A stretch of 64,000 nucleotides of DNA, taken from an uncultured archaeon (GTDB lineage: Archaea > Thermoproteota > Bathyarchaeia > 40CM-2-53-6 > CALIRQ01). The position numbers and the translations under genes were made by a program. This document shows, piece after piece, positions 2,552-61,176 of the stretch. Every line of letters starts with the position of its first letter. The stretch's first letter is position 1. The notes under the pieces were generated by a model, which worked only from the letters and a program-made list of their open reading frames with translations, had not been told where the DNA came from and made no database searches. The stretch is taken from contig CALIRQ010000006.1 of assembly GCA_938042195.1 (NCBI GenBank), forward strand, positions 46,868-110,867, written 5' to 3'.

Positions 2552-3529
2552 CTAACGCATCCAAACGACCTTCGCTCCACCGCAGGGCCTAGCGACGAGG
2601 GGTTCGCATTTCAGGCCCACCTCGGAGAAGCCCTCCGCCATGGCCTTCGCCACCTCGGATGCCTTGGCCGCCGTGTTATCCACGACCGCCAGCATTGTCG
2701 GTCCGGATCCGCTTATGGCGACCCCGCATGCCCCAGCCTCGTATGCCTTCTTCTTAACAATATCATAGCCGGGTATGAGCTTGGCCCTAATTGGCTCGAC
2801 TATGGCATCGACCATCCCGGATCCGATCGTGGACACATCGCCCCTGAGGATCCCCGCGACGATGCTCGATGCCCTCCCAATGTTCCGCGCCACCTCGCCC
2901 AATGGGACCTGAGCAGGGAGCATGGCCCTAGCCTCCTTCGTGCTGATCTCTATATCGGGTATGGCTATAGCGAGTTCCAGGTTAGGCGGCGGATCCATCC
3001 CTATAGCCCTCAGGGGGTCATAGGATTGTATCAGTACGAAGCCCCCCAATATCGCGGGCGCCACGTTGTCCGCATGGGGGGATCCAGCGGAACACAATTC
3101 CCCAAAGGCTGCTAGGGCTACGAGCTCATCCTTGGGAAGGCCCAAGCCCAATAGCCTATCCAGCCCCACTATGGCGCCAGCGGCCGAGGCCCCGCTGCTG
3201 CCCAAGCCCTTTCCGACCGGTATGTTCTTCTCAAGCCTTATCCTTATCCCCCGCTCTATCCCGAATTTTTCAAGGAAGTGCTTAACGGCCAAACAGGCCG
3301 AGTTGGCGTCTTGCTTCCTCGGGACGAGTTTACCATATCTACCGGAGAGCTCCAATTCCAAGTATCGCTTCCCGCATTCCTCCAACTCCTCCAGCTCCAC
3401 CGCGTCCCAAAAGGCCCCAACCGCCATGCCGAATACGTCGAACCCAGGGCCAAGGTTCGCTGTTGTGGAGGGTACCTCGACCCTGATCGCTGAATGATTA
3501 TTCCCCCGGCCTCCATTTACCGTGGCCAA
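2552..3529 (-). CDS. thrB: Homoserine kinase (GHMP family)
   Basis: PSTTANLGPGFD, PVGKGLGSSGASA, HADNVAP, ISGSGPT. Start codon uncertain. Confidence 0.93.
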   Translation of the reverse strand: MATVNGGRGNNHSAIRVEVPSTTANLGPGFDVFGMAVGAFWDAVELEELEECGKRYLELELSGRYGKLVPRKQDANSACLAVKHFLEKFGIERGIRIRLEKNIPVGKGLGSSGASAAGAIVGLDRLLGLGLPKDELVALAAFGELCSAGSPHADNVAPAILGGFVLIQSYDPLRAIGMDPPPNLELAIAIPDIEISTKEARAMLPAQVPLGEVARNIGRASSIVAGILRGDVSTIGSGMVDAIVEPIRAKLIPGYDIVKKKAYEAGACGVAISGSGPTMLAVVDNTAAKASEVAKAMAEGFSEVGLKCEPLVARPCGGAKVVWMR

Positions 3530-5870: not shown

Positions 5871-8800
5871 CTAGGAGGAGGTAAACATGTAAAGGTCTAT
5901 CAGCCCCGTGCCCATCGGTATTTGTTGTCCCACGATGACGTTCTCAGCCACGCCCTTCAAGAAGTCCTCATCCCCCCTCAGGGCGGCGTCCGCTATCGTC
6001 GGAACGGTGATCTCAAAAGCGGCCTTCGCCAGGGGGCTCGCTTTCTCTCCGGTGACGCCGTGCCTACCGACTTGGAGGACCCTGCCGGACGCCGTCATGA
6101 CGTCGGCCACTAGCATCACATGCCTTATGTCCACATCCAAACCCTGCTCCTCCAAGACGCTCATCGCCTCCTTTATTATGACGTTCCTCGCGGCCTCTAT
6201 CCCGAGGACCGCGGCCACCTCATGTATGTCATTGCTTATCGTCCTTGTGGGATCCACCCCAGGGGTCCTCAGGGCAATCGCGAGCCCGGAGCCCTCAGTC
6301 TTCAGGACCCACTCCCCGTTCTCCTCCACGACCAAAGCCCTCTTCACTGTGGGTATTCCCTTGACGTGCAAGGCCTCTATCCTGGATTGCAACTTCCTGA
6401 ACTGTGGCAACTCCATATTCCTGGCGGTTATATCTATGTTTAGGCCATGGAACTTCACGTCGCATAGCCCAAGCCTTATGGATTTTTGAAGCTCCGACAT
6501 CGCCACGCCCCTCTTCCTCATGGCGTCCGGGTCCAGCCTAACGATCACCTTCATCTCGGTTAAATCCGATTCTATGCTCGATGCGATATCCCCCAAAGTG
6601 GTATGGGTTATCCTGGACGCCACCCTCTCGGCCTTCTCCTTGCTTGACCTATGCTCCTTATCCAAATAAACGGTCATTGTTGGCGTGGAGGGCGTCTTCC
6701 TAGCATCCACTATCTCGATGAGCCTAGGGAGGCCCAAGGTGACGTTCTGCTCCCTTACGCCGGCGAAGTGGAATGTCCTTAACGTCATCTGGGTCCCGGG
6801 CTCCCCTATGGATTGGGCCGACACCATTCCCGAGGCCTCCCCGGGCTCGATTAAGGACGACTCATATTTCCTAACGACCTCCTCCACGACTTCATCGACC
6901 GCTTCCTTCGTTAACTTGGCCCCTAGGATCTTGGATCTCAGCTCATCCGCCAGCTTCGGCGTCAACCTGCTCTTATATTGCGAGAGCCTCTTGATGACGT
7001 ACTCCTTCGTGGCCTTTCTACCCTTTCCCATGGCGAGCTTGACCTTCTCAATTACCGCATCCACATTAACGGATTTCCCGCGATCGCTCTTGGACGTATC
7101 CGTCCCATCCTCGCCATATTTGAACTGTATTATATTCCCGTTTGGATCCCTAACGGTGTTGTCATACTCAACCCTTATATGTTCAAGGGCGTTCACCAAG
7201 CGCCTCTGCATGTAGCCACTCTGTTGCGTTCTAACGGCGGTATCGACCAAGCCCTCCCTCCCGCCCATGGCATGGAAGAAGAACTCTATCGGATTGAGCC
7301 CATCCCTGTAGGAAGAGTAAATGAATCCCCTCGCGGCCGCGCCAGCATCGCCCCATTCAAAGAACGAGAGGGTCCTGTCTCTGTATCCCCTCAATATCCT
7401 CTTCCCCCTTATCGATTGTTGCCCCAAGCATGCCGTCATTTGGCCTATGTTGAGCATGGATCCTCTGGCCCCCGTCCTGGTCATTACGATCCCGCTGTTC
7501 TCCATCCCGAAGTAAACCTCAGCGCACTCGCCCGCTTGATCCCTGGCCTTGGATAGCTCATTCATTATATGTATTTCCAAAGTTTCTTTCAAGGATTGGC
7601 CCGGAAGCCTTTCCAAGGTCCCGCTCCGGTAAGCCTCTATCAAGGAGGAGACGTTCCTCTCGGCCTTCTCTATGACCTTGGCGATCTTTGCCCTGACTTG
7701 ATTCGGGAGATCCAGCTCATCTATGGAATAGGTGAAACCCTTCAGGGTTAGGAACCTATCAAGGAGTTTCGATATGGAATTCAGGAACCTAGCGGCTACA
7801 TCGGTCCCATAATCCTTCACTATCCTGTGGAATAGCGTACCCGATTTCTCGGCCCCTATGGAATTTTTATCTATAACTCCCTTTATGAGTTTTCCATCTT
7901 TAACGACTACGAATGCGTCGTATTCACATTTCTCCTCTAAGCATTTCTCGCATTTATAAATGCTGCATAGGTTTGACTTGGTCGAGAAGTATAGGCCCTT
8001 TGGCAGGAATAGGCTGAATATCTGTTTCCCGCTCCATAAGCGGTTCTTGCCATCCTTTGGTGGGGGAAGCTCCCCCTCATAATTTGCCGCCGCGAGCAAG
8101 ATCCCCACCTCCTCCTTGGTCAAATAAGTCCCCTCCTTGGTCAGGAGATAAGCGGCCGTGATCAGGTCCGTTTTCGCGCCTATGATAGGGCCGCCGTACC
8201 TAGGCGAGAGTATTTGATCCCGCACCCTGGCCAGAAGGTCCGCCTCTGTTATCGCTTCCTCGCTTTGGGGAACGTGGAGGTTCATTTCATCCCCATCAAA
8301 ATCAGCGTTATAGGGAGGGCAGACGCATGGGTTTAGCCTAAAGGTCTTATATGGAAGTACCTTGACCCTATGGGCCATGATCGACATCCTATGCAGCGAT
8401 GGTTGCCTATTGAATAGAACTATATCGCCATCCCTTAGGTGCCTCTCCAAGATGAAGCCGGGTTGTATGGCCTCCGCCAATTCCTTCCTATCGGATACGA
8501 ACTCCAACCTTATCCGCCTCCCATCGCTCCTAACTATATATAGGGCGCCCGGGTATTTCTCCGGCCCATTCTCTACCAACTTCCTAGCGTATTCTATGTT
8601 CCATTCCGTTATCCGCTCCGGCACCGTAAGCTTGCTCGCAATCTCCACCGGAACGCCAACCATATCTATTTCCAAGTTCGGGTCTGGGGATATCACAGTC
8701 CTCGCGGAGAAGTCCACCCTCTTCCCGGAGAGGTTCCCCCTGAACCTCCCCTCCTTCCCCTTGAGCCTTTGGGCGATCGTCTTGAGGGCCCTCCCCGACC

Positions 8801-13296: not shown

Positions 13297-13430
13297 ATCC
13301 CACTTCTCTCCCCCAGAATTACAATTTCTTGACGATCGCCAAGATGGCTCCTCTAGCCGGCATTGAACGGTTTAATAAATTTTTTGAATCTCCTAGGCCC
13401 GCCCACGCCAAATGATGGAGCTACATTGTG

Positions 13431-13564
13431 TGGCGGGCCCGCCGGGAATTGAACCCGGGGCCACCGGGTCTCTCCCCGGGGGTAAAAGCTTCGCCGGCGC
13501 CCCGCGACGCCACCGGTGCTCTACCTGGCTGAGCTACACGGCTCCTTTGGGAGCTTACGGGCCC
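13431..13564 (-). tRNA. tRNA-Lys(UUU) with three introns (9/10, 30/31, 37/38)
   Basis: Removing 13555-13535 (21 nt), 13512-13490 (23 nt) and 13482-13470 (13 nt) leaves a 77-nt cloverleaf: GGGCCCG UA GCUC AGCCAGGUA GAGC A CCGGG CUUUUAA CCCGG UGGCC CCGGG UUCAAUU CCCGG CGGGCCC G CCA. Each junction forms a BHB-like fold. Confidence 0.9.
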
Positions 13565-13656
13565 AGCAGGCCCGCCCGCTACGCAAAGGGGGCAATTTTC
13601 TAATTAATCTTTCCCGAGCCAAGTTTAAATGCCCTAACCGATAAATCAAAACTGGG

Positions 13657-15610: not shown

Positions 15611-15691
15611 GGAAGCTGGGAGGATCGCTAGGGGATTCCGCAATATTTTTTAATCGAGTTGGCGGGCATCATTCTTCGCCCTGGGCGAAGG

Positions 15692-15816
15692 GCCCTGGTA
15701 GTATAGAGGTATTAAAGATACCGTAAAACCCGGCCTAGTATGTGCGGCTGTCGCCCGCACGACGCGGGTTCAAATCCCGCCCAAAAGGGACCATAATCCC
15801 TTGGCGAGGGGCGCCA
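15692..15816 (+). tRNA. tRNA-Asp(GUC) with two introns (15/16 and 68/69)
   Basis: Removing 15707-15728 (22 nt) and 15784-15808 (25 nt) gives a 78-nt cloverleaf: GCCCUGG UA GUAU AGCCCGGCCUA GUAU G UGCGG CUGUCGC CCGCA CGAC GCGGG UUCAAAU CCCGC CCAGGGC G CCA. Confidence 0.9.
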
Positions 15817-15935
15817 AACCCGCGTCGGAGGGAATCCGAATCACGGGCCTCCTCGGCCCCTAGAGCGAGCCCCGAGGGCTTGGAAACGCAAAAATTTTAT
15901 GCTCGATGTCCCCATCCATTACCGGTCCCGCGGAT

Positions 15936-16131
15936 CCCGCGGTAAGATGCCCAAGGCATCCCGCAAGCTCAGCCTGGTAGAGCTTCCGAGCCGGCCGAGG
16001 CAGGCGGCGGAGAGGCTGTAGGCGCGCGCCTTCGTCGGCGTGCGCTGCCCAAGCCTATCAGGCGACAGAAACCGGAGCGTCGCTGGTTCAAATCGGGCCG
16101 AGGGTCCGTGGAAATCCGGCCCGCGGGACCA
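15936..16131 (+). tRNA. tRNA-Tyr(GUA) with four introns (9/10, 30/31, 37/38, 59/60)
   Basis: Removing 15945-15966, 15989-16014, 16022-16070 and 16093-16114 gives a 77-nt cloverleaf: CCCGCGG UA GCUC AGCCUGGUA GAGC U UCCGG CUGUAGA CCGGA GCGUC GCUGG UUCAAAU CCGGC CCGCGGG A CCA, with the archaeal Tyr identity elements C1-G72 and A73. Confidence 0.9.
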
Positions 16132-16139
16132 CCACGGTA

Positions 16140-17916: not shown

Positions 17917-18501
17917 CTTCGCCGGGGCTTTTTCCCATTATCTTTTCCTTTTTATGCGCCTCATAGATTCTGCGACCTACTATATCGAGCCCTCAAATTC
18001 GATCTCGAAGCCCACCGGGATCGCATGGACCCGATCCCAACCGATGGCGGCCCATGATGCCCCCGGGCCTCTTTGGGCCCGAGCGGCTCCATGCGGCCTC
18101 ATCTTCGGCAAAGACCTGAACGCTGGGGCCAAGGGCCTAGTCGATAGGGGGATCCCAAGGGGTCAATCGCGGAGAAATCCCTTCCCATAGGGATCATCGG
18201 GGGCCGAGCCAAAGCAATCCCATCGGAGGGAATAAGTCCGCGAGATCGCCTATGCCCTTTACTAAGGTCGGATTGTTGAGGGGGGCCAAGCGGCCGTTAT
18301 GATCCGTGCTCCATTCGCCCCGGAGGCTGTTGATGGCGCGGACGTTTGGGCGGGCCATGCGGACCACATGATGAATCAATGCCGTGTATATCCACCATAT
18401 GCCCAATCGAAGGGAATGGAGCGACTCTAAAATCCAGATTGCTCAGGGCCTTCGCCCGGGGCCTCGCTTGAATCCCGAGGCGATCCTCGTCAAGGATGCG
18501 A

Positions 18502-18612
18502 TGGCGGGCCCGCGGGGATTCGAACCCCGGATCCTAGGCTCCCCCCGCATCGCTCCGAAGGCCTCCACGCCCGAGCGGCGCTATGTCCTGATCCAGGCTA
18601 GACGACGGGCCC
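18502..18612 (-). tRNA. tRNA-Arg(UCG) with two introns (29/30, 37/38)
   Basis: Removing 18580-18563 (18 nt) and 18554-18541 (14 nt) restores the anticodon arm UAGGC-CUUCGGA-GCCUA; acceptor GGGCCCG/CGGGCCC, G73, CCA. Confidence 0.88.
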
Positions 18613-18678
18613 GTTCCTATAGGCGATGGAAACCCCTTTATAGGTTGCTGATGGATCCACCATCCGCGGCGCCGGGCC

Positions 18679-38437: not shown

Positions 38438-38526
38438 GCCTTCGGGCAAGGCCCATGGGATTATCCCTCAGGCCTCTCCAATCCCGATAATATTAAATAG
38501 GCGGGTTTTCCCTTCCAACGTTCAAG

Positions 38527-38624
38527 GCATCCGGGGGAGCTGGGGGAACCCGGCTGAGAGGGTGGCAGATCCGCCACCGACCCTTGGAACCTGATCCGGG
38601 TAATGCCGGCGAAGGGAGGGATGC
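38527..38624 (+). promoter_or_regulatory. TPP (THI-box) riboswitch
   Basis: P1 GCAUCC/GGAUGC; conserved GCUGAGA, GACCC, GAACCUGAUC and GGGUAAUGCCGGCGAAGGGA; TATA-like ATTAAATA about 30 nt upstream; directly upstream of thiW. Confidence 0.93.
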
Positions 38625-38724
38625 GGTGGATGGGCTATCCGCCGAAGCCCAGCCGAGCGCTGGGGCTCCTTCTCCGATCCGGATCCGTTCCCCCGGGTGC
38701 ATCGAAGCTCGGAGGTGAATGCAT

Positions 38725-39957: not shown

Positions 39958-40081
39958 TGGTGCGGGGGGTGGGATTCGAACCCACGAAGGCCTGCGCCAC
40001 AGGATATCGCATCCTGCGACGGATCTTAAGTCTGGCACCCCGTTGGGCCCTGCCCCTTTGGCCTGACTCGGGAACCCCCGC
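39958..40081 (-). tRNA. tRNA-Leu(UAA) with two introns (30/31, 37/38)
   Basis: Removing 40048-40032 (17 nt) and 40024-40006 (19 nt) gives an 88-nt tRNA with anticodon arm CAGGA-CUUAAGA-UCCUG, a long variable arm, A73 and CCA. Confidence 0.88.
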
Positions 40082-40138
40082 CGTTGGACGGCATCTAAAG
40101 ATATAAAGGGCTGGAGAAAAATATTCCCAGTCAGCGGA

Positions 40139-40232
40139 GGGCCCGTGGCTCAGCCTGGATAGGGTTAAGGGCGTCCAAAGCGGCGGCCTCCTAAGTCGTA
40201 GGTCGTGGGTTCGAATCCCACCGGGCCCGCCA
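40139..40232 (+). tRNA. tRNA-Arg(CCU) with one intron (22/23)
   Basis: Removing 40163-40178 (16 nt; central helix GGAU/GUCC) restores the D-stem GCUC/GAGC; anticodon CCU; CCA encoded. Confidence 0.9.
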
Positions 40233-60842: not shown

Positions 60843-61176
60843 GGCGGCGGGGCTTAGGCGGGGGGCTCGGTCTCCCCTGAGGGAACCCAGTCCCGACCAC
60901 AAATGACCGATACGGTGGGCCGAGAGTCGCGGCGAGGCATCAACGACCTCGCTCTGCCTCCTGAGCCCGGCTGGGAGGGTTCGTCCCCCGGGGACGGCGT
61001 AGGGCGACGACCCCTTCTCGGAGGGGAGGGGGGCCGCCCGCGCGGGCCGAACCGGGGGAGGCTTGGGAAAGAGCACCCCTAAGGCCCGGCGTCGGCGCTC
61101 GGGGGGGAGCGGGCCTGAGTTGGGCAAGGGTCGGCGCGCGGGGCACCGAGGTGCCCAACCGCGATGTCCCGCCGCC
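60843..61176 (+). ncRNA. ffs: SRP (7S) RNA
   Basis: Helix 1 GGCGGCGGGGC/GUCCCGCCGCC; Alu loops UCGGUC and GACCGA complementary; helix 6 with a GGAG tetraloop; helix 8 GGGG-AGG-CUU-GGGA-AAG-AGCA-CCCC SRP54 motif. Confidence 0.9.

Follow-up and report, generated by a model that had tools for sequence, protein, structure and literature searches.

How can an intron be spliced from a tRNA precursor when its splice motif calls for a strand that the folded tRNA already uses? The question arises in the window (the whole 64,000-nucleotide stretch of DNA analysed here) at a tRNA-Lys(UUU) gene with an intron between nucleotides 9 and 10, the 9/10 intron, and a short near-copy of its own 5' acceptor strand in the leader. 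The features of this locus are as follows.

13431..13564, minus strand: tRNA-Lys(UUU) gene with three introns and encoded CCA; the spliced form is a perfect cloverleaf.
13567..13576 (read 13576-13567), minus strand: leader copy ("decoy") GGCGGGCCUG, which pairs with the 3' end in the MFE fold.
13565..13566, minus strand: spacer CU, 2 nt (MFE fold).
13556..13564, minus strand: 5' exon, nucleotides 1-9, GGGCCCGUA (GGGCCCG-U8-A9).
13535..13555, minus strand: 9/10 intron, 21 nt; G10 is at 13534.
13432..13441, minus strand: target of the leader, CGGGCCCGCC, comprising nucleotides 66-72, G73, C74 and C75; A76 is at 13431.
13596..13609, minus strand: TATA-like box GAUUAAUUAGAAAA, the presumed promoter, placed by its spacing only.

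The leader can form 10 bp with nucleotides 66-75, including a single G-U pair (U 13568 opposite G67); this had been claimed in the first-pass annotation, and our reading of the minus strand confirmed it. The GGC at one end of the copy complements G73-C74-C75, and the remaining GGGCCUG is a wobble copy of acceptor nucleotides 1-7; the 3' end of the gene reads CGGGCCC-G73-C74-C75-A76 (13441-13431). Removal of the three introns, two of which lie in the anticodon arm, leaves a 77-nt tRNA-Lys(UUU) with a perfect cloverleaf. The TATA-like box ends approximately 17-19 nt upstream of the leader copy.

We considered whether the copy might have arisen by chance. About 2.2 occurrences of the motif GGCGGGCYYG are expected across the whole window, and we estimate that its landing by chance 2 nt upstream of its matching tRNA is a ~1e-4 event. 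The leader decamer motifs are scarce in the window; elsewhere they form part of tRNA 3' ends or are found at a distance from recognisable tRNAs. Because the motif is rare, and because none of the 82 control tRNAs described below has an anchored pairing of at least 8 nt, the tRNA-Lys leader copy is not a chance match. Of the other GGCGGGCYYG matches (1087, 4243 and 36106), the two inspected, 4243 and 36106, adjoin no recognisable tRNA. A second GGGCGGGCCU (13395-13404, minus strand), 27 nt downstream of tRNA-Lys, could likewise pair with the tRNA-Lys 3' end; it is absent from sister species and is probably a chance occurrence.

The layout of tRNA-Lys, with leader copy, 2-nt spacer, 9-nt exon and 9/10 intron, is repeated at a tRNA-Tyr gene in the window.

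15924..15935, plus strand: tRNA-Tyr leader copy GGUCCCGCGG (15924-15933) and spacer AU; the copy pairs with 16121-16130 in the MFE folds at 37 and 70 °C.
15936..15966, plus strand: 5' exon CCCGCGG-UA (15936-15944) and 22-nt 9/10 intron (15945-15966).
16121..16131, plus strand: 3' acceptor strand, A73 and CCA (CCGCGGG-A-CCA), the target of the Tyr leader; CCGCGGGACC is 16121-16130.

That the Lys and Tyr copies match in length, register and spacer therefore stands within the window, but this part of the earlier claim does not extend to related loci, where copies of 8-10 nt are followed by spacers of 0-3 nt and no register is fixed. Three other tRNAs had been described as having leaders free of a copy, and we reached the same result. 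Anchored pairing does not exceed 4 nt in tRNA-Arg(UCG) (~18500-18615, minus strand) and tRNA-Arg(CCU) (40141-40232), and there is no leader copy at tRNA-Leu(UAA) (~39960-40085, minus strand), where the leader was read by eye. All three are multi-intron genes with encoded CCA and yet have no copy, and the two tRNA-Arg genes have the acceptor stem GGGCCCG and G73 in common with tRNA-Lys.

The 9/10 introns themselves have a regular structure. In tRNA-Lys, an inner hairpin can form between GCUCC (13554-13550) and GGAGC (13545-13541), and the intron sequence CGUG (13540-13537), which ends 2 nt before G10, faces exon nucleotides 4-7 (CCCG, 13561-13558) with three of four pairs and one C-U mismatch. 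An outer helix of 6-7 bp is present in the MFE fold, in which CU and G 13567 (leader nucleotides -3 to -1) together with G1-C4 pair with G10-C16. The corresponding tRNA-Tyr sequence, CCGC (15961-15964), pairs with GCGG (15939-15942). In all 24 distinct introns that we compiled, a 4-nt complement of exon nucleotides 4-7 is located exactly 2 nt before G10; all four pairs can form in 20 introns, and three of four in the three tRNA-Lys introns of the window genus and in locus L023. This complement abuts a hairpin of 3-8 bp, the sequence of which varies widely between genes while its ends stay complementary. The hairpin has 5-6 bp in the tRNA-Lys and tRNA-Tyr of the window, leaving U8-A9-A as a 3-nt bulge; the UAA bulge in related loci was imposed by our search pattern.

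We compared these introns with the relaxed class of archaeal bulge-helix-bulge (BHB) motifs, using published motif classes (PMC5829648). The 3-nt bulge carrying the 5' splice site and the 4-bp helix are present in 24 of 24 distinct introns, and excision restores a canonical cloverleaf, as in the spliced 77-nt tRNA-Lys(UUU). The 3' splice site always falls 2 nt past the central helix; in the MFE fold of tRNA-Tyr it lies in a junction loop, making the motif BHL-like. As judged from pairing and predicted folds, the 9/10 intron is thus made up of the bulge, 4-bp helix and inner helix of the archaeal bulge-helix-bulge motif, with its 3' site in a relaxed context. The splice motif uses the 5' strand of the acceptor stem, and therefore the motif and the stem cannot coexist.

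A lineage-wide test of association between intron and copy had been named beforehand, and we carried it out. Species-representative genomes were scanned with a pattern consisting of six G/C bases, G7-U8-A9-A, 13-26 nt and the D-arm GCUCAGCCNGGUAGAGC, with the leader sequence left unconstrained. The scan returned 61 loci, of which ~40 were bacterial false positives in which the pattern occurs in the leader of an intron-less tRNA; the viral-contig match L011 was rejected on the same grounds. The archaeal matches are tRNA-Tyr, tRNA-Lys(CUU or UUU) and tRNA-Met(CAU) genes with a 9/10 intron, and the carriers belong to the Bathyarchaeia, Nitrososphaeria (Thaumarchaeota) and Conexivisphaerales. We scored a copy when at least 8 nt of leader pairing started at C75 or C74 and ended no more than 4 nt before +1. 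With duplicates removed, 21 of 22 distinct archaeal 9/10-intron tRNAs carry a leader copy, and in these 21 an unbroken run of 8-10 leader nucleotides is paired to the 3' strand; its first partner is C75 (C74 in one), and 0-3 nt separate the run from +1. As controls, we collected 82 distinct genes from metagenome contigs that share the D-arm and have comparable acceptor stems, but lack a 9/10 intron. None of the 82 has a leader copy with at least 8 nt of anchored pairing, and the control maximum is 5 nt. The difference is significant (Fisher p = 4e-21), although this value overstates independence because many of the 22 genes are orthologous tRNA-Tyr; the independent events amount to roughly three to four tRNA families and at least two joint gains or losses. 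The test spans Tyr, Lys and Met tRNAs with G7-U8-A9-A and one D-arm type.

Close tRNA-Tyr homologues that have no intron also have no copy. Two matched sets illustrate this. Locus L033, which has both intron and copy, shares an unusual T-arm intron with L140, which has neither; L021 (intron and copy) and L118/L148 (neither) have another T-arm intron in common. Therefore, on at least two occasions a gene acquired or lost intron and copy jointly. The one exception is L071 (~3100-3195, minus strand; Bathyarchaeota S4B2_HD70), a tRNA-Lys(CUU) with a well-formed 9/10 intron and no copy, and the copy is therefore not strictly required. A possible TATA-like element lies so near to L071 that this gene may be leaderless. 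L048, a tRNA-Met gene of that contig, carries a perfect copy. When we scanned 1.3 Mb of collected DNA starting from the copy itself, no further tRNA with a leader copy was found.

We then asked whether copy and target change in concert. The third nucleotide of the copy is U opposite A73 in tRNA-Tyr and tRNA-Met and C opposite G73 in tRNA-Lys, and the rest follows the acceptor sequence: GGU-CCCGCGG accompanies Tyr (A73), GGC-GGGCCYG accompanies Lys (G73) and GGU-GGGCCCG accompanies Met (A73). At 6 of the 10 pairs between leader and 3' strand, both sides change, and 90% of cells are paired; none of 500 shuffles reached this level of pairing, and registers slid to either side came nowhere near it. 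Within the contiguous paired stretch, the only deviations from Watson-Crick complementarity are C-to-U substitutions facing G. Thus, the proposal that each leader tracks its own acceptor stem and discriminator base is upheld by covariation across Tyr, Lys and Met. Since the end of the copy nearest the spacer (opposite C66/C67) is variable, the core consists of 8 bp with nucleotides 68-75.

Sister species were sampled from nine syntenic contigs; the neighbouring LeuA protein is 94% identical to proteins of Bathyarchaeia metagenome-assembled genomes. A LeuA locus with 70% identity (L010) is not syntenic, and look-ups of Cdc6 neighbours in the L070 lineage found no tRNA-Tyr. The Lys copy of sister species is GGCGGGCUUG or GGCGGGCCUG, and the C-to-U change in GGCGGGCUUG preserves G-U pairing. 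In sister species, the Tyr copy, GGUCCCGCGGAU, has stayed the same, while the leader just upstream has acquired several substitutions and an indel. The trait is old, as it is common to Bathyarchaeia and deep-branching Nitrososphaeria.

These data bear on the idea that the copy is a functionless evolutionary leftover, either of a small duplication at intron insertion or of a partial tRNA repeat left by an integrating element. The copy is indeed a near-direct repeat of nucleotides 1-7 adjoining the gene, and partial tRNA repeats at archaeal integration borders are known (PMC3293823). However, its GG-N portion copies nothing adjacent, instead complementing N73-CC and covarying with it, and substitutions within the paired stretch are exclusively of the kind that preserves wobble pairing. 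The copy has been kept across Bathyarchaeia, Nitrososphaeria and Conexivisphaerales while the flanking leader diverged, and it is missing from close homologues that have no intron. Moreover, it is only 7-10 nt long, and the called neighbours in the window are housekeeping genes (rpoH/rpoB, a DUF498 gene and leuA), for which no integrase-type Pfam domain was recorded. We therefore regard a leftover as very improbable. An att repeat at an integration border was rejected as well, given a repeat of 7 nt that lies 0-3 nt from the gene and is conserved across classes.

Could the upstream copy instead be the true 5' acceptor strand, with the downstream strand being part of an intron that is larger or nested? 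There is precedent for nested tRNA introns in archaea (PMC8450103), and the two 7-mers of the window tRNA-Tyr are interchangeable in sequence. U8-A9 follows the downstream copy only, however, and use of the upstream one would leave GG-N as a paired leader and provide no U8. Several lineages have a copy shortened to GGUCCCGC or placed directly against the real strand (L025, L042 and L052), the 0-3 nt spacer is variable in sequence, and splicing from the downstream copy yields a perfect cloverleaf. This arrangement is hardly credible, even less so than a leftover. It is also unlikely that the mature tRNA has a longer acceptor stem (cf. tRNA-Sec and the G-1 of tRNA-His), since it would have to be extended by 10-13 nt that are out of register.

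The position of the copy relative to the promoter is informative. In the intron-containing genes, the median distance from the end of the TATA-like box to the copy is 22 nt, and in intron-less tRNA-Tyr genes this box ends ~22-28 nt before +1 as judged by eye; our crude TATA finder is uninformative for AT-rich control leaders, which were likewise judged by eye. From this spacing, the copy is probably the very 5' end of the primary transcript, on the supposition that the leader is transcribed.

To examine how the leader might influence folding, we used nearest-neighbour partition-function calculations averaged over 22 decoy-bearing precursors; L071 was folded and excluded from the means. With the leader present, nucleotides 4-7 pair with the intron with a probability of 0.79 at 37 °C (0.56 at 70 °C) and with the 3' strand with a probability of 0.00 at 37 °C (0.04 at 70 °C). 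When the leader is removed, pairing of nucleotides 4-7 with the intron falls to ~0.00 and pairing with the 3' strand rises to 0.96-0.99. The 3' strand is paired to the leader, when present, with a probability of 0.86-0.89, and the MFE folds of the window tRNA-Tyr (37 and 70 °C) and tRNA-Lys contain the leader helix. These calculations predict no splice-site helix unless the 3' acceptor strand is taken up by the leader. For the window tRNA-Lys, the central helix with its C-U mismatch has a predicted probability of just 0.11, and the fold is dominated by the leader and outer helices. The first-pass annotation had described a rule-like device that accompanies 9/10 introns, and this description is supported by the association, the covariation, the absence of copies from intron-less homologues and the predicted fold switch; its function we infer.

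Together, the complementarity, conservation, covariation, association with the intron, position at the predicted transcript start and predicted switch, all drawn from sequence and computation, suggest that the leader is probably a surrogate 5' acceptor strand, which would expose the splice motif and tether the 9-nt exon. The leader of 10-13 nt would consist of GG, the complement of N73 and a copy of nucleotides 1-7 that is wobble-substituted or truncated at times. In the primary transcript, it would pair with the 3' acceptor strand and N73-C74-C75 over 8-10 bp, compared to 7 bp for the real stem. The freed 5' strand could then form, through nucleotides 4-7 and the 3' end of the intron, the 4-bp central helix of a relaxed bulge-helix-bulge, with U8-A9 and the first intron nucleotide as a 3-nt bulge containing the 5' splice site. 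The rest of the molecule would keep its cloverleaf-like frame, and the 5' strand and intron would become an extra hairpin that presents the splice sites.

The leader helix may also hold the 9-nt 5' exon on the tRNA body near G10 while the endonuclease cuts and the ends are ligated; without this helix, the cut exon would be held solely by 4 bp to the excised intron. RNase P and use of the 3' end would be blocked until splicing is done. After ligation, the real strand would displace the leader, which RNase P would then remove. We infer that the leader is transcribed, that it affects the endonuclease, that it tethers the exon, that processing follows this order and that RNase P removes the leader. 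A leader copy exists, as the term "decoy" in the first-pass annotation implies, but the word is probably too narrow, since the copy should also tether the 9-nt exon.

The predicted energetics complicate the last step. After splicing, the leader helix still surpasses the native acceptor stem (-44.6 versus -37.5 kcal/mol at 37 °C), and at 85 °C the values are -7.8 and -5.2 kcal/mol in the secondary-structure model. Strand exchange would therefore require tertiary folding, RNase P or another factor. The same persistence gives the helix a lock-like quality that would suit another explanation, in which the leader mainly masks the 3' end as a timing device and any help to the splice motif is secondary. 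Up to the completion of splicing, the mask would hide N73-C74-C75 from RNase Z, exonucleases, the CCA-adding enzyme and aminoacyl-tRNA synthetases, and would keep the acceptor stem out of reach of RNase P. Specific pairing of the GG-N extension with N73-C74-C75 fits this explanation, as does the presence of an encoded C74-C75, with which the GG of the leader pairs, in every one of the 22 intron genes, compared to 35 of 82 controls (8 of 22 Tyr-like controls). On the other hand, the multi-intron, CCA-encoding tRNA-Arg(UCG), tRNA-Arg(CCU) and tRNA-Leu of the window do without a copy, and the copy goes with a single intron position, the one at which the splice helix draws on the acceptor strand, a confinement not expected of a general mask. 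We consider a mask unlikely as the main function, and favor the surrogate acceptor strand.

Two observations concern the encoded 3' ends. The window tRNA-Tyr ends in ACCACCA (16128-16134, plus strand), and an encoded CCA followed by CCA or CCAC also occurs in L059, L065, L069 and L072. Eight AT-rich metagenome tRNA-Tyr genes without a 9/10 intron, which we take to be thaumarchaeal (L075, L078, L082, L096, L102, L122, L163 and L172), do not encode CCA and have UA after A73.

A surrogate strand of this type would explain how archaea splice introns in or near the acceptor stem, where splice motif and tRNA fold exclude each other and one of the exons has just 9 nt. It would constitute a new cis-acting element in tRNA biogenesis, a self-encoded strand mimic in the leader that acts as a natural, compact RNA switch, and it predicts an enforced order in which splicing comes first and 5' trimming second.

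We compared this arrangement with known systems. Relaxed BHB introns (hBH, HBh' and BHL) of TACK archaea, which are processed by (alpha-beta)2 endonucleases, likewise have a 3-nt bulge, a 4-bp helix and an inner hairpin, and their removal restores the cloverleaf (PMC5829648, PMC4090602, PMC8450103). For the lineages concerned here, both the broad-specificity enzyme and non-canonical introns of the Thaumarchaeota type have been reported (PMC5829648, PMC4090602, PMC8450103). Descriptions of relaxed BHB introns deal with the intron and splice motif, and we found none that names a leader element replacing the borrowed acceptor strand; position 9/10 is absent from a review's list of non-canonical intron positions. 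Our search took in reviews on archaeal tRNA introns, split and permuted tRNAs, splicing endonucleases and tRNAscan-SE 2.0. It found Thaumarchaeota non-canonical introns and flank-assisted BHB formation in split tRNAs, and no description of a leader copy of the acceptor strand within the searchable literature, in agreement with the earlier suggestion that the device is possibly undescribed; subscription-only papers lie outside this literature and could hold an earlier description. We rate the feature as a variant of flank-assisted presentation of a splice motif.

Further parallels are the split and tri-split tRNAs of Nanoarchaeum equitans and Caldivirga maquilingensis and the permuted tRNAs, in which complementary leaders and trailers hold the pieces together and build the BHB. 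In those genes, as here, discarded flanking sequence that is not part of the tRNA tethers a tRNA fragment for the splicing endonuclease. The present genes do not belong to either class, however: leader, exons and introns are contiguous and collinear in a continuous gene, and the leader pairs with exon nucleotides 66-75 rather than with a trailer or other flank. In contrast to split tRNAs, the leader mimics a tRNA strand and not a BHB helix, and its removal would presumably fall to RNase P, not to the splicing enzyme. The processing stems of archaeal rRNA operons, formed by flanking inverted repeats with a BHB, also organize a precursor for the splicing endonuclease through a long-range 5'/3' helix. 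There the flanking helix holds the cleavage motif, whereas the helix described here is away from the splice sites and would act by strand competition or replacement. As in riboswitches and attenuators of the anti-terminator type, one strand has two alternative partners and a sequence element determines the choice between the helices, and the switch predicted here is near all-or-none; it differs in using no ligand or ribosome and in residing in a transcript whose processing must reverse it. Pairing between leader and 3' end or trailer also occurs in pre-tRNAs of bacteria and yeast, where it modulates RNase P cleavage. The 5' leader thus pairs with the 3' terminal region of the precursor in these cases too, but as an in-register, usually short extension of the stem, unlike the out-of-register duplication of a whole acceptor strand at one intron position.

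The first-pass annotation overlooked another window gene, tRNA-Asp(GUC), that also has an upstream copy of its own acceptor strand.

15692..15816, plus strand: tRNA-Asp(GUC) gene with a 68/69 intron in the 3' acceptor strand (15784-15808).
15677..15698, plus strand: upstream copy C-GCCCUGG (15677-15684), 7-nt spacer and real strand GCCCUGG (15692-15698).
15817..15827, plus strand: tRNA-Asp trailer AACCCGCGUCG, a perfect 11-nt complement of 15760-15770 (variable loop and T-stem 5' strand).

The 8-nt acceptor-strand copy, 7 nt upstream of the real strand, was found in this genus only, and its layout is a looser relative of that of Lys and Tyr. A hairpin upstream of tRNA-Asp (UUCGCCC/GGGCGAA) was dismissed, as it is not conserved in sister species. 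The splice motif of the 68/69 intron uses the T-stem 3' strand in its central helix, and 8 of the 11 trailer nucleotides that complement the variable loop and T-stem are kept in two sister species of the genus. It is possible that the trailer next to this intron is a mirror-image "trailer copy"; a scan for such trailer copies found the window tRNA-Asp only.

These features can be gathered into a general rule, which we offer tentatively as something that could hold but that we would not call probable. Where a splice motif borrows an acceptor or T-stem strand and leaves a terminal mini-exon of less than 10 nt, the leader or trailer would encode a mimic of the borrowed strand, and the mimic would unmask the motif, tether the mini-exon and force splicing before end maturation. 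Both polarities would be represented in the window, by the Lys and Tyr leaders and the Asp trailer. If the rule is true, such tethers could be a stepping stone from continuous to split tRNA genes. In a metagenome contig (L178, minus strand, ~6160-6400), a tRNA-Asp has an insertion of ~52 nt directly after nucleotide 7. The insertion includes GCGCCC, which complements the 3' end GGGCGC, and may hold a copy inside an intron instead of in the leader.

The layout also affects gene annotation. Rfam and ARAGORN either missed these multi-intron tRNAs or started them inside the 9/10 intron, for example at 13434-13543 (minus strand) in the window, L048 1394-1465 and L071 3100-3173; we set gene limits by hand and with regular expressions. 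Because the finders mis-start these genes, automatic annotation likely misplaces their 5' ends, and the leader-copy rule could improve the annotation of multi-intron tRNAs. Among other structured RNAs, the window contains a candidate archaeal SRP RNA (60846-61173, plus strand; 82.7 bits, below the Rfam gathering threshold of 96.5) and a TPP riboswitch (38523-38635, plus strand; 71.7 bits).
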